This document shows, piece after piece, positions 5,882 to 63,628 of a stretch of DNA of 64,000 bases. The position numbers were made by a program, and so were the translations under genes. Source of the stretch: Ruditapes philippinarum (taxonomy: Eukaryota); assembly GCF_026571515.1 (NCBI RefSeq), contig NW_026855294.1, positions 186,001-250,000 of the forward strand, given 5' to 3'. The notes under the pieces are model-generated. The model did no database searches, was not told the origin of the DNA, and saw nothing but the letters and a program-made list of their open reading frames with translations. The number at the start of each line of letters is the position of its first letter. Position 1 is the first letter of the stretch.

Positions 5882-8800
5882 TAATAATAATAACAGTATT
5901 TAACGAGAGAACTCATTTGAACAACAAATCAGTCTTCCACAAGACCCTCAACAAGGAACAGTATAAGTTTAACATATTCAAACTATTTAAATATATTAAT
6001 GTTAATGCATACATGAGATTATCAATTTGCATACATCGATGTATGATAATATCTCAAGTATAATGTTTTCAAATGGTTCACAGATGTAGCAGACTTGATA
6101 TAATCAGGAAAGCCGTTCCAAATTAAACAAGAGACTTGCGCAATTGTTCAATATTTGTTCTAGGGGTATAAAGTTGAAAAAATCAGACGATGAACGCAAA
6201 ATGCGAGTATAATAACTGACGAAAAATGAAATCATTCAATAAATAGGAAGGTGCCTGATTCACGGTGCATATCCATATCGGTACCCTCTTTGCGAAATCT
6301 GCTGAAACGGTACCCTCTTTGTACATGCACAGGCCATTCTCTGCTCAAAACAAATCAAGCGATGGATAACAAGCCAGTAAAAATTCACTGTAATAAGGAA
6401 AGGAGGTATGACACGTAGAAAAGATGTATACCACGGAACACTAGAATGTTTTATCTATTTCCTGAATTTGTCATGTGCCCGTTTTTCATGTACTGCAACT
6501 TCACAATACGCTACAAAAAATCAACATGTCTTACCTCGCCCATCACCTCGACATACTTTTCTGGCTGAAATGAACCTGTGGCTTGATTATATATGCATCA
6601 TACATATCTAATATGTTCATTTACATATCATCTTCGGACAAATGGCAGTACATTGTCAAAATAATGGTAAAATTCATAAAAACACCCTACTTTCAGTTTT
6701 GCAGCGGCACGGGCTACCTCTCTTCATTTGAATTTTTATATCACAGGTACCGTCTCATTTTTTTTAACACATAGGTATACTCAATGCACGACATATGCTT
6801 TTAATTGCGCGTTAATCGTTAAGTATGTAATATTTACATAAATAAAGAAATGTTACATACCTAACGAATAACGCAAAATAAAAGCATATGTCGTGCCTTG
6901 AGGGTACCTATATGTGAAAAAAATTGAGAGGGTACCTGTGATATAAAAATTCAAATGAAGAGAGGTAGCCCGTGCCGTTGCAAAAACCGAAAGTAGGGTG
7001 TTTTTATGAATTTTTCATTTATTTTTTTGACACTATACTGCCATTTGTCCGAAGATGATATGTATATGAACATATTGAATATGTATGATGCATATATAAT
7101 CAAGCCACAGGTTTATTTCAGCCCAAAAAATATGTCGAGGTGATGGGCGAAGCAAGGCATGTCGATTTTTTGTAGCTTATAGGAATTTGTAGTACATAAA
7201 AAAACGGGCACATGACAAATCAGCACATAGATAACACATTCTAGTGTTCCGTGGTATACATCTTTTCTACGTGTCATACCTTCTTTCCTTAATATATTGA
7301 AATTTTAATGTATTGTTATCAATCGCTGGTTTGTTTTTAGCAGAGAGTGGCCTGTGCATGTGCAAAGAGGGTACCGTTTCAGCAGATTTCGCAAAGAGGG
7401 TACCGATATGGATATGCACCGTGTGATTATTCATTATCTTAAGCATCATAATAGCTATATGAAAGCGGAGTTCAGAAAATAGTTCAGCGGATGGAGTGTC
7501 ATGATCTTTGTCTAGAATTAGTCTTGCAGCTCTCTTTTGGAACTTAATTTAATGAGTTCATCTTCTAGAAAAGACGTACAGTTATCGTAAATTATGCAAC
7601 AATAATCAAGATGTGGTAAAATATATGCATTGTAAAACATTTAACGTACAGGTATTGGTATGAATAATTTTATACGAGATAATAAATGTAACAGTGAGTT
7701 GCATTTTTCGAGAACATTATCAATATGACTTTGCCAAGACAAGGCCGGTGTTATCAATTGTGATACCCAGTAATTTTTCTTCAGAGCTACAAACAATTTG
7801 CTCTGTTTTATACGAAATACAAGGATTACTTTCATAAATATAATTTTGCTTGTGTTTTGAGGAAATATACATGACCTGAGCTGTGTTAGCATTGATAGAC
7901 TCACACCATATGTTGACATTTAAAAGATCATGAGTAAGAGAATCAACTACCCTGTTAAGGGATACATCAGATGTTGAAAGGGTGGTGTCATTAGCAAAAA
8001 TTTCTGTTGTTTTTTGTTGTTGTTTTTTTTTCAATAGACAAAGGTGGGTCATTGATATAGATTACAAACAGTATAGAACTTGAGGAACTCCAGTAGTTAC
8101 TGAACTTGACTCTGAATATAACCTGGATATGCAGGCCCGTCGTCACGATTTTGTGAATGGTGCGGCCAATTTGGTTGGATTTAGGCAGAATCTAGGGGGG
8201 TACGGGGGCATGCTCCCCCGAAATTTTTTTTATTCTAGGATGCTCTCAGAGGCGTTTTCCCGTATATTTGGCACAGTGTACAGCTTGCCGCTAGTACATG
8301 TTATAGTAATATGTCAACGATTTTTTACAGATTTAAGTGCGTCGTAAGTTTTCAGGGTGAAATTTAAGGTTCGCATGACGGACGGACAGGTGTACATAAA
8401 AGATGAATACATGTAATTGATATTTGGCAAATGAAAAATAAACAATAACTGATGTTGTTTTAATTCTTTAGATGCATTTTTATCTGATAATTACAAATAA
8501 ACAATAACAAGAAATATTACAGTACATTGTACCACTTTTTGTTTAGCAGTAACTTGTTCACAAAAATCTTACACAACAGAGTCTCATTTTATGTAAATTT
8601 GCTGAGGTTGTCTGTAAATGCTAGGATGTCGTGTGCAAGCATTACACCGAAAAAGTACTCGAACGTCCTCATCTGAGCAGAAACACCCAGAATTCGCGCC
8701 CTGGTCTCGGAGTCCTTAGCGTTACACTCGTCCCATAGGTCCTTTAGTACAGTGTAATTATCAATCACACTTTTGAGACTTGCTGCACGGACTGCCCAGC

Positions 8801-14924: not shown

Positions 14925-16085
14925 ACCACTCACACAGCAAGCACTGCTTGCTGAACACTACTCATACAACGGACACTTTATGCTGAGCACTACTTACACA
15001 ACGGACACTTCATTCTAAGCACTACTTACACAATGGACACTTCATTCTAAGCACTACTTACACAATGGACACTTCATGCTGAGCACTACTTACACAATGG
15101 ACACTTCATGCTGAGCACTACTTACACAACGGAAACTTTATGCTGAGCACTACTTACACGATGTACACTTTATGCTGAGCACTACTTACACAATGGACAC
15201 TTTATGCTGAGCACTACTTACACAACGGACACTTCATTCTAAGCACTACTTACACAATGGACACTTCATGCTGAGCACTACTTACACAACGGAAACTTTA
15301 TGCTGAGCACTACTTACACGATGTACACTTTATGCTGATCACTACTTACACAACGGACACTTCATGCTAAGCACTTCTTACACAATTGACACTTCATTCT
15401 TAGCACTACTTACACAATAGACACTTCATGCTGAGCACTACTTGCACAACGGACACCTTATGCTGAACACAACTTACACAACGGACACTTCATGCTGAAC
15501 ACAACTTACACAACGGACACTTCATGCTGAGCACTACTTACACAACGGACACTTCATGCTGAGCACTACTTACATAATGGACACTTTATGCTGAGCACTT
15601 CTTACACAATGAACACTTTATGCTGAGCACTTCTTACATAATGGACACTTTATGCTGAGCACTTCTTACAGAATGACAAATCATGCTGAGCACTTCTTAC
15701 ACAACAGACACGTTATGCTGAGCACTTCTTACACAATGGACACTTCATGCTGATCACTAATAACAAAATGGACACTTCATACTGAGCACTAATAACACAA
15801 TGGACACTTTATGCTGAGCACTAATTACACAATGGACACTTGATGCTGAACACAACTTACACGAAGAACACTTTATGCTGAGCAATACTTACACAATGGA
15901 CACTTCATTCTTAGCACTACTAACACAATGGATTCTTCATTCTAAGCACTACTTACACAACGGACACTTCATGCTGAGCACAACTTACACAACGCACCAT
16001 GCTTGCTCAGCACCACTCAAACAGAAAACACTGCTTGCTTATCACCACTCACACAGAAAACACATCTTACTGAGCACTACGCATA
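14925..16085. repeat. 32-bp minisatellite, about 36 units
   Basis: Unit CTTACACAAYGGACACTTYATGCTGAGCACTA, period 32 (e.g. 14991, 15023, 15055). Confidence 0.95.
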
Positions 16086-16979: not shown

Positions 16980-19900
16980 TTAAATCATAGTAAAGAGTTT
17001 ATGGTTGAGATCATAAACCACCGCAGCAGCTACAGGTAGCATAACTAGACATCCGGTCAACCCTTCACCATTGATCAACCACTGCTGTCCGGTATATTTT
17101 CCGGGAGTATTAGTGTAAATGCTGCCTAACACAGTCGGGTTGTATATGTTCCAGAACCAGTGCATTATACTGCACGCCCACATAGAATAGCTGAAAAAAG
17201 GGAAAAAAGAGTTCAATCAAGACTCAACAAAATGCATGTACGAGTATAACTTACTAGTCATTGCAGTAAAACGGCATGTGTGGCGGCATGGTCGATTGGT
17301 TTAATGCGTCGGACTAGTAATCTATGGATCTCCCTGTCAGAGGCAAGCCATTGTTTCCTTGAGCAAGAAACATTACACTCGTTGCTCAGTACGGGTTGGT
17401 TCCAGGAACGGATTCGAGAGCGTGCCTATAAGCTTATAGCGTCCTACACAATACTTCTAAAATAAATTCTGTATTTGTTTGTTTTCTTCGGTTTGTTTAA
17501 CGGAGCACAATCACAATTTAGGTCATATAGCGCTGAAGCAGGAGGGATGATTTTGGTTAACCTCGGCAAGGTTTTGAAGCATATAATGTTGTACGTTGTT
17601 AAAAAGAAATCAATTTTACTTAAAAAATAATTCACTCCATTCAAAGCAATTTCATCGCCATTTACGTACCCAGATTTCACAGCTAGCCACCCATGAGGAA
17701 ATGCGGAGAGTAAACATGACACACTCTGCACGATCACTGTTATATATGGACGCGAAGGTTTGAGTCTGTAAGTCAACAAAATCATCACAGGCACGTGGAA
17801 GAGTCCCCAAACAATACCACTGAAATAAAAGAGTAAAGATACATTTATTGTTAAGAAGACCACTGTGCATATCCATATCGGTACCCTCTTTGCGAAATAT
17901 GCTCAAACGGTACCCCCTCTGAACATGCACAGGTCATTCTCTGCTAAAAACAAACCAGCGATGGATACCAATCCAGTAAAATTTTATTGTAATAAGGAAA
18001 GGAGGATTGTCACGTAGAAAAGATGTATACCACGGAACACTAGGATGTTTTATTTTTGTGCTGATTTGTCATGTGCCCGATTTTCATGTACTGCAACTTC
18101 ACAATAAGCTACAAAAAATCGACGTGTCTTGCTTCGCCCACCACCTCGACGTATTTTTCGGGCTGAAATGAACCTGTGACTTGATTATATATGCATCATA
18201 CATATTTAATATGTTCATAAACATATCATCTTCGGACAAATGGCAGTATATTGTCAAAAATAAATGTGAAATTCATAAAAACACCCTACTTTCGGTTTTG
18301 CAGCGGCACGGGCTAACTCTCTTCCTTTGAACTTTTATATCACAGGCACCCTCTTATTATTGAACACATAGGTACCCTCAAAGCACGACATATGCTTTTA
18401 TTTGCGTTAATTGTTAAGTATGTAATAATTACATAAATTTAAAGTAAAAAGTATTACATACACACTTAACGATTAACGCAAATAAAAGCATATGTCGTGC
18501 TTTGAGGGTACTATATGTTACAATACCTATGTGTTCAATAATGAGAGGGTGCCTGTGATATCAAAATACAAATGAAGAGAGGTAGCCCGTGCCGCTGCAA
18601 AACCGAAAGTAGTGTGTTTTTATGAATTTTACATTTATTTTTGACAATATACTGCCATTTGTCCGAAGATGATATTTATATGAACATATTAAATATGTAT
18701 GATGCATATATAATCAAGCCACAGTTCATTTCAGCCCGAAAAATATGTCGAGTTGATGGGCGAAGCAAGACACGTCGATTTTTTGTAGCTTATTGTGAAG
18801 TTGCAGTACATGAAAATCGGGCACATGACAAATCAGCACAAAAATAAAACGTCCTAGTGTTCCGTGGAATACATCTTTTCTACGTGACATACCTCCTTTC
18901 CTTATTACAATAAAATTTTACTGGATTGGTATCCATCGCTGGTTTGTTTTTAGCAGAGAATGACCTGTGCATGTTCAAAGAGGGTACCGTTTGAGCAGAT
19001 CTCGCAAAGAGGGTACCGATATGGATATGCACCGTGAAGACTGTAGAATAAAAAGCATTACTGAAAAAAATGTAGGAAAAGATATGTTTTATTCCAAGTG
19101 ATTGTTCGATTAACAAGTTCATTGGTTGGTTGGGTTTTACGACGCACCTATACAGAAAATGTCAAATGGCGTCTTTCCAGCTTTTATGGTGGAGCAAGAT
19201 CTCAGGTATCCTTCAATGTCACTGACACCTGAAAACAACCACCACCAAAGCTAGCTGGATAGTTTTCTCATATGAAAGAATTCTGTCCCAAGTGAGATTG
19301 GAACTTATAGCGGTGAGGGCAAATGATTTAAGTTTATGTTTAAGTGATGTTTATACTTTGTCAGTAACAGTCTTAAAGCCTCCAGATTAATGCTAATTTT
19401 CATGAACAATTTTGAAATATGTGAAAACGTATAATAATGTGTAGTGACCAAAAGGAAGCAATTGCACCTAATTAATTGCACTTGCAATTCACGTAAATTA
19501 CTGAAATGAGGTAAAAATGTGCAAAAAAAGCCCTTACTGCATTAGTAACGCAGTACAAATATAGTCATAATATTGGAAAAATTAACCACATATAACATGT
19601 TAATTATTACTTGAATCTTTAACATTTTTACATTCCTGAAGTCTAAGTAATATATTTTTAAGTTATTGAAATATTTTGGATTATCTGGAGGCATGTAGCT
19701 TTAATGTGTCTATAGAAATGTGATTTATAGAATAAGGTAACAAAACAGAACCGTGTGGTAAGTACAAGTAATGTTAAAATAATTGAATACCGTCAGATGT
19801 GTGCAAAGCTTAGTAAACAAGGGAGACAAATGCATACAGACTGCAAGGTGTTCCTTTTTATAAAGCATGTATCCCGAGCTAGTTGTGTATTATAATATTG

Positions 19901-26740: not shown

Positions 26741-28806
26741 CTAAATGTCTATCAACCTCTGTCTTTTTAGGGTGAATAGTGGCATTTGGAATTTTCGCTT
26801 CCTTGTGTAGCTGCCCATTTCTATGTCTGACGGTTCTTCCGTCTGCTTATAGAATGCTTCCCATCCCCTCAGAAAAGTAGCCTCCGCACCGGCTTTGTCG
26901 ATGAATTTGTTTCTTCTGTAACCAGGCGTGTATGTCACCGACTGGTCCACCTCGTTTATCTGCAGGTAGCCTGCCTTCAGTAAAAGATTGATCAAGTTTT
27001 CTATAGGAACTGTGGTTTGTTCGCAAGCCAACTTCATCATTTCGTTAGAGAATTCATTTCCGCTCACACCGTTACACTCGGTAAGTGAACTCAAATATTT
27101 ACGTAGATTGTCTCTACATCGTTCATTAGCTTCTGCATCGTCAAACAACATAATTGCCCCGGTGCGTTGTGATAATTGCTTTACGGTCTTTAAAATATAT
27201 TCCTGAAATCCACGCAGCGTTTCTCGGGAAGTATCCGAAGACGTATCCATCCTGTCAAACATACTTCGAATTCTTTGGAATGATTTTCCCTTGGCTGGTT
27301 TACGTTTTCCAGGATATATCAAAACGGACCCTAGAGCGCTTGTATTATTTAGCTGGAACGTCTTCACAGAGATAGAAGACCCCAGTCGAACATTCAGAGT
27401 TATCTCATCTCCTTCATCGATTTTGTTTTCCTTAGATATCTTTGACATTAGAACATACCTGGGCGACGCAACATACGTAATGTGACCAACACTTTTAACA
27501 AAAGTTTTAAACTGATGCAAGGTTTCCGGTTTCTTTTCCGTTGCCCACAACTTAAGAATAACATGCACAACTTCCGGCTCGATTCCTACAGGCCATAAAA
27601 AGAGCGGCGAATTCAACAAACTTTGTTTTCTTTCTTCGACGTCGGCTGGTTCTTCTTGATGATTTTGATTTCCACAATCGTTGCTAGTTTCCATTTTCTC
27701 AATTTTCGGTTGATTCTTCGGATACGATTTATATGCTGGATATTTGTTTATATACATGTCCTCACAGTACGCTCCTATTGCTTCAATTCTGGCGTTCTGA
27801 ATAGAATCATTGGCCTGTTTAATAAACGAAGAAAACAAATGATATGTACAGGCTGATGCCTTTCCAAGATTAGCTTTAATCTCTTCTATCCATTTCTCCC
27901 ACGCGTTTGAAAGTTCATTCAGAGAAACAGTGTCCGGAAATTTGTAACTGACCAATTCCAGCCACTGGTGCATTATGTCAAGGTGCTCGAGATGCCTCGT
28001 GATTTTGTCGACATCTAAATGGGAGTCAACGCTGCATGCTGATGCAATTGCAAAAGCTGGGTTCTCTGTGTCTATCATACGAAGTTTCTGTGAATACCAG
28101 TCCTAAAGTGTAAAATAAATTATTGTATATTTTCTTTATGGAATGGTTTCCTTTATCTGCAACAAAATCAATGTGCATGTATTCTGAATGAATAAAGTTT
28201 TCTAACAGGTTAAATCTAACGTACTGGCTGACCTCAGACATAAAAGTTTGAGTGTAACTATTAAGTAAATAGATCTACATATACTAATATGGCACACATG
28301 TATAATGCTAAAATCGAAAGTAGACACAATTAGAAATTTTTACTTCCATTACTTGGAATGCTATAATTTTAAACAATGGTCAAAACTTACTTAGGCCTTA
28401 ACATCGACATGTTTGTTTCTTTGAATATCATGACAAGGTAGCTATATAATTATATAAAAGATTTACTTACGTGCACTTTACTTTCGATTTCAATGTGCAA
28501 ATCCGAATCACAAGGCAACACAAAGAAATGTCGCCCTTCATCCTGCGCTCGTTTAAACGCCGCTTCGGCAATTGCGATGTCCAGATCGGAATCTGTTTTA
28601 TGAACCACTTCCTCGTTCTTTAACGGAACTGCACTATCCGTGGTTAGTAAATAAATCAGAATCTGGTTCACAAAAATGACCTCTGATTCCTTTTTGAGTG
28701 TATTTTTCAACTTTTCTAAGGTTTTCGGGCGACACTCTGTTAATCCATGTGACATACTGTCCAGTTTGGCTACGCATCTTGACAATAGTTTATGATCATT
28801 TGCCAT
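26741..28806 (-). CDS. Uncharacterised protein, about 565 aa, 2 exons, with a basic NLS-like C-terminus
   Basis: Exon 1 is 28806-28471 (112 codons, donor GTAAGT, phase 0). Exon 2 is 28102-26741 (acceptor TTTAG, phase 0, 454 codons including stop) and contains the 445-aa ORF. A long ORF in AT-rich DNA with TATA and CCAAT boxes upstream. No family recognised. Confidence 0.75.
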
Positions 28807-28876
28807 TTTGCCGACTTATTCCTTTTAAAACAATGAAAACTTAAATTTGATTCAGGGTTTTTCCAACATGTTACTA

Positions 28877-58700: not shown

Positions 58701-59734
58701 TTGGGGATTTTTTTAAAATTTTGATGGTAAAAAGTCGGAAAACGGGTTTCCCCCCACAACCGAAACTAGGGGAGTTTCAAAGAAATTTGCAAAGCTATTT
58801 GTTAGTGCAGACAAAACTTTTACTCCATTTTTCATGTTTAAAGTCTTTAAAAATTTTTTGTCTATGACATTTGATGGGTACTGTAAATTTTCGAAATTCG
58901 ACGTTTTAGGGTTTTTAAAACCATGGCATCCAGTAAATTTCGTAAAGGGGAAAATTTTTTTTGCATTTATGGAGGGGTTCTTCAAAATTTATAGGCCCAA
59001 AGGGAAAAATTTGAAGAATCAAAGTGTTTAAAATTTTTTGCCTTTTTCATTAGTTTTTAAAAAGGGGAGGGAAAAAACTAAAATTTTTGGTTAGCCAAAC
59101 CCCCCTCCCTATGGGATCCCAATGTACACATTAAAATAAAACCCGGTGGCAATTTGTTTTTTCAGTGGTTTAAGAACCCCTCATTTAAAGGAATGGAAAA
59201 ACATTAAAAATTAATATTATGGAAAATTTGATTTTGGGGTTTAAAATTTCTTCATTGATTCACATTTTTGTGACCCCATAAAAAAAGAACAAAATTTAAA
59301 ACACAAAAATGTAGAAAAAAAATTTGAAATTGGGATACACAGTGAAAATAAAACAACATACAACATTTTAATTAAAGAAATTTTTTTATCATTTTTTATC
59401 AAAGGGACAAATCTAAATAAATTAAATTAAATTTTTGCTCGTTCCCAAAATATAAAAATGTATCTATGCACTTGCGGTAGAAAATACATGTATAGATAAT
59501 AAACATACAAAAAGATATTTGAACAAGTGAAAAAAAACTTCCTGTTGGACATTACATTGTATAGTAGTAACAATGGCAATTAGGTAATGCTGGGTTTAGC
59601 AGAAGCATGAGAAGTCGTACTGGTGGTGGTAGCAGTAGCAGCAGTACTAGTAGTTTTTGTAGTAATAAGAGCAAAAATAATTTAATTATCATAAAAAGCA
59701 GCGGCAGCAGCAGCATCATTATATGCAAAAGCAG

Positions 59735-60762
59735 CAACGGCAGTGATAAAACCTGCCACAGTAGAAGTAGTACCAGCAAAGGCAGTGATAAAACCTGCCA
59801 CACGTAGAAATTAGTACAGCAAAGGCAGTGATAAAACCTGCCACAGTAGAAATAGTACCAGCAAAGGCAGTGATAAAACCTGCCACAGTAGAAGTAGCAG
59901 TACAAAGCAACGGCAAGTGATAAAACCTGCCCACAGTAGAAGTAGCAGTACAGCAACAGCAGTGATAAAACCAGCAATAGAAGTAGCAGTACAGCAACGG
60001 CAGTGATAAAACCTGCCACAGTAGAAGTAGCAGTACCAGCAACGGCAGTGATAAAACCAGCAATAGAAGTAGCAGTACCAGCAACGGCAGTGATAAAAAC
60101 CTGCCACATTAGGAAGTAGCAGTACCAGCAACGGCAGTGATAAAACCTGCCACAGTAGAAGTAGCAGTACCAGCAACGGCAGTGGTAAAATCAGCAGCCA
60201 CAGAAAGTAGTATCAGCAAAAGCAGTGATTAAAAACCTGCCACAGAAGAAGTAGCAGTACCAGCATCGACAATAGTAAAACCAGCAGCCACAGTAGAAGT
60301 AGTACCAGCAAAGGCAGTGATAAAACCTGTCACAGTAAAAGTAGCAGTACCAGCAACGGCAGTGATAAAACCTGCCACAGTAGAAGTAGCAGTACCAGCA
60401 ACAGCAGTGATAAAACCAGCAATAGAAGTAGCAGTACCAGCAACGGCAGTGATAAAATCAGCAGCCACAGAAGAAGTATCAGCAAAGGCAGTGATAAAAC
60501 CTGCCACAGAAGAAGTAGCAGTACCAGCATCGACAATAGTAAAACCAGCAGCAACAGAAGTAGTATCAGCAAAGGCAGTGATAAAACCTGCCACAGAAGA
60601 AGTAGCAGTACCAGCATCGGCAATAGTATAACCAGCAGCAACTGAAGTAGTATCAGCAAAGGCAGTGGTAAAACAGCAGCAATAGAAATAGAGACATGAC
60701 CAACAATGGCAATAGTAAAACCAGGAGAAGCAGAAGTAGTAGCAGTACCAGCAACGGCAGTA
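59735..60762. repeat. 42/45-bp triplet-periodic minisatellite
   Basis: Unit CAGTGATAAAACCTGCCACAGTAGAAGTAGCAGTACCAGCAACGG and 42-bp variants, grading into (AGC/AGT)n at the left. Confidence 0.9.
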
Positions 60763-62021: not shown

Positions 62022-63628
62022 ACACAAGAGCGATCAGTGATCACATGTGTCGCCTCATGATGGCCAATTTCATGTAAGGACAAGTTTTGTGACAGACAGA
62101 CAGACATACAGTGCACAACTAGACTTGGTACTGATCATTCCTGTAAAGTTTGATAAAATTGCACCAGTAGTTTATGATGAGTAGTCCGGACAAGCTTTTG
62201 TGTATCTGGCAACACACAGAAAAAACACCTTTTTATTAAAGGGCCATAACTTGGCCAAAAATAATTAAAATTGGTGCTATAGGCGCAAGGACTTGAGCTA
62301 CAGATCAATCCTGTAAAGTTTCATTGAAATTGCATTAGTGGTATAAGAGAAGTAGTCCGGACAAACTTTAAAAATAAGAATTATTAAAGGGCCATGACTC
62401 TGACAAAAATCATTGAACCGGAAAATACTGACAATATGCACAACTAGACTTGGTACTGATCATTCCTGTAAAGTTTTGATGAAATTGAACCAGTAGTTTA
62501 TGAGGAGTAGTCCGGACAAGCTTTTGTGTATATGGCAACACACAGAAAAAAACACCATTTTATCAAAGGACCATAACTCGGCCAAAAATCATCCAACCGG
62601 AAAACCCGTACAATATGCGCAAGGACTTGAGCTACAGATCAATCCTGTAAAGTTTCATTGAAATTGGATAAGTGGTATAAGAAAAGTAGTCCGGACAAAC
62701 TTTAAAAATAAAAATTATTAAAGGGCCATGACTCTGACAAAAATCATTGAACCGGAAAATGCTGACAATATGCACAACTAGACTTGGTACTCATCATTCC
62801 TGTAAAGTTTGGATGAAATTGCACCAGTAGTTTATGAGGAGTAGTCTGGACAAGCTTTTGTGTATCTGGCAACACACAGGAAAAAAACACCTTTTATCAA
62901 AGGGCCAAAACTCGGTCAAAAATCATTCAACCGGAAAACCCGTGCAATATGCACAAGGACTTGAGCTACAGATCAATTCTGTAAAGTTTCATTGAAATTG
63001 GATTAGTGGTATAAGAGAAGTAGTCCGGACAAACTTTAAAAATAAAAATTATTAAAGGGCCATAACTCTGACAAAAATCATTGAACCGGAAAATGCTGAT
63101 AATATGCACAACTAGACTTGGTACTGATCATTCCTGTAAAGTTTGGATGAAATTGCACCAGTAGTTTATGAGTCGTCTGGACAAGTTTTGTGCCGGACGG
63201 ACAGACGGACAGACAGACGACTGAGAATTGATCCCTATAATTATGTCGCCACTACTCCGTAGAGGCGACACAAAAATTGGTTAAATTGCATTAGTGGTAT
63301 TAGAGAAGTAGTCCGGACAAACTTTAAAAATAAAAATTATTAAAGGGCCATATCTCTGCAAAAAATCATTCAACCGGAAAACCCGTGCAATATGCGCATT
63401 AGGACTTGAGCTGCAGATCAATCCTGTAAAGTTTCATTGAAATTGCATTAGTGGTATAAGAGAAGTAGTCCGGACAAACTTTAAAAATAAAAATTATTAA
63501 AGGGCCATTAATAACTCTGACAAAAATCATTGAACCGGAAAATGCTGACAATATGCACAACTAGACTTGGTACTGATCATTCCTGTAAAGTTTGGATGAA
63601 ATTGCACTCCGTAGAGGCGACACAAAAA
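62022..63628 (+). mobile_element. HINE/Helentron-like element with an internal satellite array
   Basis: 5' ACAAGAG..TGTGTCGCC, about 334-bp dimeric tandem cores, (GACG/GACA)n at about 63195-63220, 3' hairpin TGTCGCC..GGCGACA followed by AAAA at about 63244-63275 and repeated at about 63606-63628. Confidence 0.8.

Follow-up and report, generated by a model that had tools for sequence, protein, structure and literature searches.

The 64,000-nucleotide stretch of the Ruditapes philippinarum genome analysed here (contig NW_026855294.1, positions 186,001 to 250,000; hereafter the window) contains a 1,163-bp palindromic, non-autonomous transposon at window positions 6261–7423. We find that this palindrome shares its ends with an 11.5-kb coding element located elsewhere in the genome (G000:C6802:107328-118865, hereafter C6802) and that it was very probably moved by the enzyme of C6802, or of a lost sister of this element, which combines a P-element-like predicted fold with an exonuclease, rather than by a Transib or RAG transposase. 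The terminal 38 bp of the palindrome (6261–6298, + strand) are those of both ends of C6802, whilst 48 of the first 50 bases agree; over 500 bp the identity is 82.5–83.1%, being highest at stretches that bear the boxes described below, and the shared terminal repeat extends over approximately 570 bp.

The palindrome is composed of a left arm (6261–6806, + strand) and a right arm (6876–7423, − strand), both assigned to the right end of a 2.3-kb parent family, which join in an AT-rich and loosely self-complementary centre (6807–6875); it is flanked by the target-site duplication TGATT (left copy 6256–6260, right copy 7424–7428). The original prediction had placed the element at 6256–7428: a palindrome is indeed present there, but this span includes both TGATT copies. 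A second copy of 1,176 bp, belonging to a different subfamily, lies at 17861–19036 between two copies of AAGAC (17856–17860 and 19037–19041). The exact 5-bp duplications predicted for both window copies are confirmed, as is the description of the element as nearly one long palindrome: compared with its own reverse complement, copy 1 is identical in 90.7% and copy 2 in 95.5% of ungapped columns. Each arm retains two GGTACCCTC box pairs with a spacing of approximately 29 bp, and these boxes are likely to be protein-binding sites. In copy 1, the outer pair of the left arm begins at 6280 and 6309 (6280–6317, + strand; spacing 29 bp), in the same places as in the coding element, and the inner box is found at 6746–6754 (+ strand), with its partner mutated; the right arm exhibits an inner pair at 6900 and 6928 (6900–6936, − strand) and an outer pair at 7367 and 7396 (7367–7404, − strand). 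No open frame longer than 81 codons is present in the family consensus. With inverted ends, a duplication of fixed length, dispersed copies and no coding frame, the palindrome is in itself nothing unusual, being a non-autonomous terminal inverted repeat element of the foldback or miniature inverted-repeat transposable element (MITE) type.

A DNA search of the 1.41-Gb assembly with the element yielded 1,393 candidates, of which the best 40 were scored, whilst exact matching recovered the terminal 32-mer 661 times and the terminal 14-mer 919 times, with no match to the reversed-pattern control in either case; these numbers greatly exceed those expected by chance, and the genome has at least 919 exact ends. 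Amongst the first 29 copies, the 5-bp duplication was exact in 27 and showed one mismatch in 2; amongst 52 two-ended family copies it was exact in 44, with one mismatch in 7 and three mismatches in 1, and exact duplications of other lengths were counted as follows in these 52: 2 bp, 5; 3 bp, 2; 4 bp, 1; 6 bp, 1; 7–10 bp, 0. The 44 exact duplications have a G+C content of 17.7%, compared with 33% in the window, and the flank bias is weak and symmetric (C at position −2 in 44%, at −1 in 39%), the lean towards C/G being confined to two flanking bases. CACGGTG is the family end (left, 26/29; right, 28/29); CACTGTG, which had been reported alongside it as a terminus, is private to one end of copy 2. 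With hundreds of dispersed copies and 44 of 52 exact 5-bp duplications, the expectation of a non-autonomous foldback family with CAC ends is borne out. Duplications of 2–4 bp, which the original prediction had named as the sign of a CACTA/Chapaev-like family and which are published for Chapaev/CACTA (CMC) elements (bioRxiv 10.64898/2026.08.26.747230), are not the pattern observed, and membership of this group was rejected on the basis of the 5-bp length.

Most of the 40 sampled ends are truncated arms. In 7 of these 40 (L097, L098, L104, L116, L120, L129, L134) and in 5 of 30 interior matches (L144, L145, L149, L150, L161) the truncated copies have flanks in common on both sides, and these are pieces carried inside other repeats or duplicated segments. 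Long copies amongst the first 100 pattern matches were considered as parents and are nested insertions instead. A 610-codon frame with a Mutator domain (PF20700) in L132 was likewise rejected as the partner, as it belongs to a nested element with other ends: this 3.2-kb element (L132:543-3742) lies inside an arm, has ends of the form GG..CC, contains an internal direct repeat of 29 bp and is, at a guess, possibly KolobokP-like. At one locus (L045, G000:C698:5800-7475), where the arms are 91–96% alike, the flanks are mutually perfect inverted repeats (254/254 bases), which reflects either an error in the assembly or an inverted duplication with the element at its centre.

Amongst the 30 loci examined in a search with one of the sister elements introduced below, exactly one carries the end of the palindrome family, and this locus is C6802. 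The element is 11,538 bp long, exhibits 572-bp terminal repeats that are 96.9% alike, is flanked by the duplication TTTCG and retains the boxes at positions 20, 49, 485 and 516. Its transposase gene consists of three exons that, joined across two GT-AG introns, provide 1,317 open codons; the protein displays the motifs D236, D770, D(2)H at 1107 and E1272, together with a YqaJ PD/ExK motif at 522/545. Facing this gene is a convergent C2H2 zinc-finger gene (PF00096, E 5.3e-20), the frame of which contains five fingers by strict pattern and seven by eye. The last coding exon of C6802 is single-copy in the assembly. A 283-bp piece at G000:C10991:28306-28588 matches the transposase exon at its 3' end with 99% identity and is possibly a young deletion derivative. 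A fragment within C6802 that resembled RAG1-like (RAG1L) sequence was discarded, as it is a shared inserted short repeat and no RAG protein matched.

By sequence, the C6802 enzyme is nearly an orphan; by predicted fold, it is clearly P-element-like. A model of the C-terminal 265 residues (predicted local distance difference test score, pLDDT, 67.6) aligned with the P-element transposase (6p5a) at Z 15.1 and a root-mean-square deviation (rmsd) of 2.2 over 152 residues, and 6p5a was the only chain of 48,161 to reach Z >= 8; in the same structure search, amphioxus RAG-like (RAGL) transposase scored Z 6.6, RAG 6.4 and HzTransib 6.0. Foldseek gave E 6.7e-4 for P transposase, compared with 0.16 for RAG1 and 0.84 for HzTransib. 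The model of a sister protein, covering 1,200 residues (pLDDT 60.5), matched the lambda-type exonuclease 3syy at Z 16.1 and 6p5a at Z 13.2 (rmsd 4.3, 266 aligned over chain 200–526); RAG and Transib chains were absent amongst the best 50 matches of this model, which does not amount to their exclusion. In P transposase the catalytic residues are D230, D303 and E531 (PMC7776569), and the D(2)H motif is a feature of this enzyme (PMC3698922). All 6 of 6 aligned C-terminal rows conserve D(2)H and the final E without exception, and the D/D/E triad of the C6802 protein is presumed to be catalytic. Of 14 alignment rows, 8 matched the P-type RNase H domain PF21787 at E <= 1, with 2.5e-4 as the best value, and 9 matched YqaJ (best E 1.3e-9), with RAG1 not amongst the 20 Pfam families listed for these rows. 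A sequence search of the PDB returned only an exonuclease (E 0.03). No THAP-like pattern was seen in the first 200 recovered residues of C6802, from which the start exon is missing, and there was no THAP amongst the Pfam hits. On the basis of these models, the C6802 enzyme is predicted to work like P transposase.

C6802 does not stand alone. A YqaJ search identified frames of 1,400–1,490 codons. The elements that carry them have long terminal repeats, are flanked by 5-bp duplications and contain a zinc-finger gene that faces the large frame; they include six sisters (G000:C14003, C4476, C4410, C10957, C15578 and C4313) of 10–12.5 kb that display the two-gene layout of C6802, with proteins that are approximately 30% identical and ends that are unrelated. 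All seven elements of this class with both ends found, C6802 included, are flanked by exact 5-bp duplications that lean towards AT (TTTCG, AACAT, AAAAG, AAAAT, TTTTA, CTCTC, GTTCC); their ends are CAC in five cases and CAG in two, and two further loci of the class showed no end pair in the DNA examined. The 75 search matches suggest that dozens of families of this class are present in the genome. Ordinary P-like elements (L246-L285, 20 loci) exhibit exact 8-bp duplications in 9/20 cases and 5-bp duplications in 0/20, with long terminal repeats of mostly 600–700 bp and the ends CACAGG (7) or CAAAGG (2); given their 8-bp duplications and other ends, they were rejected as the partner of the palindrome. 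Further frames of 889–965 codons with a C-terminal YqaJ domain (G000:C13586, C7910, C15648, C10943, C13510, C1438) are unrelated to the C6802 class and are possibly KolobokE-like, a label taken from PMC9587614. With respect to the P superfamily, an RNase H fold with a P-type insertion domain is found in the C6802 class in predicted models only, the motifs for a DDE triad and for D(2)H are present in C6802, and a 7–8-bp duplication is not found: strict membership fails because the duplication is 5 bp in 7/7 class elements, compared with the published 8 bp for P and 7 bp for 1360 and Galileo (PMC3698922).

The 40 sampled ends led to a longer, non-palindromic relative of the palindrome, and the interior of this relative to the older, non-coding 2.3-kb family, which exhibits 530-bp terminal repeats that are 86% alike and 5-bp duplications. 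The arms of the palindrome are 94.9% and 93.2% identical to the right end of this parent and 85–86% identical to its left end; since both arms are closer to the right end, the palindrome appears to be an inverted doubling of one end. In the intermediates L175 and L181, the left end is replaced by a copy of the right end. The arms cluster by side across 28 copies (3 label changes, compared with 19 when shuffled), and therefore the palindrome moves as a unit. In copy 2 (17861–19036) both arms share one pattern, group together and are closer to the right end of the parent; in L028 the left arm carries the right-arm state at 16/19 diagnostic sites, which is likely the result of arm-to-arm conversion, an occasional event in this family. 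Initially, no transposase was detected in 30 interior matches and 16 extended loci of the 2.3-kb family; one of those loci (L174) is the right end of C6802. Between its zinc-finger gene and right repeat, C6802 contains matches of 73–83% to three pieces from the interior of the 2.3-kb family, and a zinc-finger relic was looked for in the 2.3-kb interior and not found. The lineage would have run from the coding element to an internally deleted 2.3-kb form and on to an inverted doubling of one end, with template switching during repair of the excision gap as the likely source of the doubling.

Several observations weigh against assigning the palindrome to C6802 and its P-like enzyme. The repeats of C6802 are approximately 83% identical to the palindrome, compared with 93–98% for palindrome copies against their own consensus; the immediate parent of the palindrome may be a sister of C6802 that was lost or is missing from the assembly, and the 17% divergence suggests that such a sister drove the main burst. 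Another coding element with these ends is possible because the genome searches scored best candidates only, and in the search that reached C6802 these were the best 71 of 211, with 30 loci examined. The start-codon exon of C6802 was not found, and the 2.3-kb consensus was built from 7 copies, 2 of them with imperfect ends. In two runs that resemble real RNA, C6802 was represented by 2 and 0 reads. Runs X21 and X22, labelled RNA-seq, contain 78 and 88 reads of the C6802 exon, most of them at least 99% alike; these reads have loose ends starting at GATC, come from both strands and cover the intron, and because they resemble DNA-ligation (Hi-C-type) libraries they are uninformative on expression. 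At the level of the enzyme, the two models were built on 14 and 6 sequences and contain long low-confidence stretches; profile-profile comparison yielded a probability of 0.24% against the ordinary P-like proteins of this genome, no higher than the 0.34% against Transib, and hidden Markov model cross-searches returned nothing significant and did not separate P from Transib. These last results fit an alternative in which the partner is correctly identified although its enzyme is unrelated to P and belongs to another or a new superfamily, the P match then reflecting a general likeness between insertion-domain transposases; the absence of a significant sequence-profile match to P, a THAP-like motif not being seen and duplications of 5 rather than 7–8 bp all point in this direction. 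However, a Z of 15.1 at an rmsd of 2.2 exceeds the scores of RAG/Transib and of every other chain by over 8 units, and the class exhibits both the D(2)H motif and matches to PF21787, and so we consider this alternative unlikely.

In the literature, Transib and RAG-like transposons are marked by their CAC ends and 5-bp duplications (PMC1131882, PMC7204232), and CAC...GTG ends as well as a 5-bp duplication are present in the palindrome. The original prediction took this signature to indicate mobilisation by a Transib or RAG1-like transposase: the signature is indeed published as such, but here it belongs to a P-fold lineage, and a preprint warns that the enzyme should outweigh features of ends and duplications in classification (bioRxiv 10.64898/2026.08.26.747230). 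C6802, the sole long coding element that was found to carry these ends, encodes a protein with a P-element-like predicted fold; the claim is thus not upheld, and this element is the very kind of autonomous partner, encoding a non-Transib transposase, that the prediction had itself set down as contradicting it. A further point for the action of a Transib or RAG1L-RAG2L transposase on the heptamer-like ends comes from bases 35–39 of the element, AAATC, which are the last 5 of the 9 letters of the Transib nonamer consensus in a 7+23+9 register; the earlier statement that no nonamer-like motif is present needs amending in this respect, although with the C6802 partner found the match is most likely coincidence.

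RAG1-like genes do occur in this genome. Searches with the RAG1 family and RAG1L proteins located RAG1L on 7 contigs and, amongst these loci, three RAG1L-RAG2L transposons that are complete (G000:C11460:23717-34130, C7606:255170-265091 and C11980:46048-55065), in which RAG1L, with 84% identity to a Mercenaria protein over its core, is accompanied by a convergent kelch-PHD RAG2L, the frames being partly broken, and which are flanked by the 5-bp duplications CGCCT, AACTG and CAATA. However, these transposons end in CACTAACAAA, in agreement with the published protostome RAGL consensus CACTWMCAAA (PMC7204232), and share no sequence with the palindrome, no piece of which lies within approximately 9 kb of any of the 7 RAG1L loci. 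In another RAG1L family (C4313, C12925, C8870) and at one further RAG1L locus (C15024), the ends are either different or not clearly defined. Two Transib-type queries, for which the assignment to subgroups was deduced from motifs and a quick tree, matched RAG1L loci only: P0179, which came from a profile search, gave 7 genome matches, and the L208 frame, taken from metagenome contigs, gave 2. The viral contigs searched contained no Transib relative. Whilst the targets of Transib and RAG are published as GC-rich (PMC1131882), those of the palindrome are AT-rich at 17.7% G+C, and its partner is not RAG1-core-like (C6802 against P element, Z 15.1, and against HzTransib, 6.0; no PF12940). Neither CACTWMCAAA-like ends nor RAG1L-RAG2L partner genes, as expected of a RAGL (ProtoRAG-like) element, are found for the palindrome. 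A mollusc genome survey reports one Transib frame, with RAG not mentioned in the excerpts consulted (PMC10294476). With a non-RAG coding element carrying the same ends, movement of the palindrome by a Transib or RAG1L-RAG2L transposase is very improbable. It is hardly credible, finally, that C6802 is a chimera in which two ends of an unrelated CAC/5-bp family flank a P-like gene, with the real enzyme elsewhere: its boundaries are uncheckable against a second full copy, since the coding exon is single-copy, and the 3.5 kb between its two genes hold other inserted repeats, but its repeats agree at 96.9% and are flanked by a 5-bp duplication that is exact, its layout is that of six sister elements with unrelated ends (long repeats, YqaJ frame, facing zinc-finger gene, 10–12.5 kb, 5 bp), and the sister C14003 likewise begins CACGGT.

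For movement of the palindrome by a C6802-type enzyme, we can outline a mechanism. Because ends and duplication length are shared, such an enzyme would excise and reinsert the palindrome, most likely by pairing both ends, with reinsertion at AT-rich sites with a 5-base stagger. The zinc-finger protein could bind the four boxes of each arm and in this manner stand in for THAP, given that no THAP-like motif was seen; we regard the chances of this as about even. The role of the exonuclease is more tentative: it might process the ends of the transposon by trimming, or resect the donor site that excision leaves empty. Resection of the donor might in turn favour repair from the sister chromatid, which would increase copy number and make end-doubled foldbacks common, a scenario that we put forward with some doubt. 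It is conceivable, though we would not yet favour it, that the C6802 class represents a distinct and undescribed animal cut-and-paste lineage, in which a P-type DDE core with a built-in lambda exonuclease has lost THAP, employs a separate zinc-finger protein as end reader, cuts with a 5-base stagger, generates foldbacks via donor resection and has reached the RAG/Transib signature independently.

In ISL2EU, a YqaJ nuclease encoded by a second gene accompanies a DDE transposase. In KolobokE, as in C6802, a DDE transposase is accompanied by a PD-(D/E)xK lambda-type nuclease, but in KolobokE the nuclease lies downstream of the transposase domain (PMC9587614), whilst that of C6802 lies inside the P-fold catalytic domain. 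The P superfamily (P element, 1360, Galileo, THAP9) shares with the C6802 class the predicted split RNase H and insertion-domain fold, a DDE triad with D(2)H, introns and CA..TG ends (PMC7776569, PMC3698922), as well as abundant internally deleted or MITE-like derivatives (BuT5; PMC3698922); Galileo also has foldback forms (according to a title cited in PMC3698922). C6802 differs from P in the YqaJ/lambda exonuclease and long helical stretch found between the first and second catalytic aspartates, and its class in the separate facing C2H2 zinc-finger gene, with no THAP-like motif seen in the recovered frame, and in protein size (1,300–1,500 residues, compared with approximately 750–900 in the P superfamily). 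Transib and TransibN (PMC1131882; Nozomi/Kodama, bioRxiv 10.64898/2026.08.26.747230) share CAC ends, the 5-bp duplication and a partial nonamer register with the palindrome, which in contrast exhibits AT-rich targets and 530–570-bp terminal repeats; the partner enzyme is not RAG1-like by Pfam or fold, and the two queries found no Transib gene in this genome. Protostome RAGL elements (PMC7204232) are similar to C6802 in CAC ends, 5-bp duplication, a length of approximately 10 kb and two convergent genes; C6802, however, lacks CACTWMCAAA ends and encodes P-fold/exonuclease and zinc-finger genes instead of RAG1L and kelch-PHD RAG2L. In the literature searched (including PMC9435367, PMC10629977, PMC4411706, PMC12730594 and PMC4079192) neither the C6802 class nor the end motif is described; Repbase and subscription journals lay outside this search, and a prior entry is possible. 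New here are the finding that seven families share the 5-bp duplication, the comparison of structures with RAG/Transib and the connection of this class with foldbacks that resemble RAG elements.

Elsewhere in the window, open frames of 453 and 121 codons are found on the − strand at 26741–28102 and 28450–28815, respectively. Three tandem arrays are also present: a 32-bp unit repeated 33 times at 14942–15992, a 42–45-bp unit repeated 21 times at 59732–60674, which contains Pro/Ala/Val-rich open frames, and a 334-bp unit repeated 3 times at 62112–63172.

CAC ends together with a 5-bp duplication serve to call Transib/RAG-like elements when the gene is absent. In R. philippinarum this signature belongs to a P-fold lineage that exists beside real RAG-like transposons, and therefore mollusc elements should be called in this way only with the enzyme at hand: ends that look like those of RAG also occur outside the RAG/Transib family. 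Duplications of 7–8 bp and a THAP domain are what P-type enzymes are known for. A branch that combines a 5-base stagger with an internal exonuclease and a separate zinc-finger gene, and that occurs beside P-like elements with 8-bp duplications, offers a direct test of the determinants of stagger; the same contrast bears on the role of accessory exonucleases in transposition. C6802 can be assayed, since its frame is open, its ends match and its natural substrates number in the hundreds.

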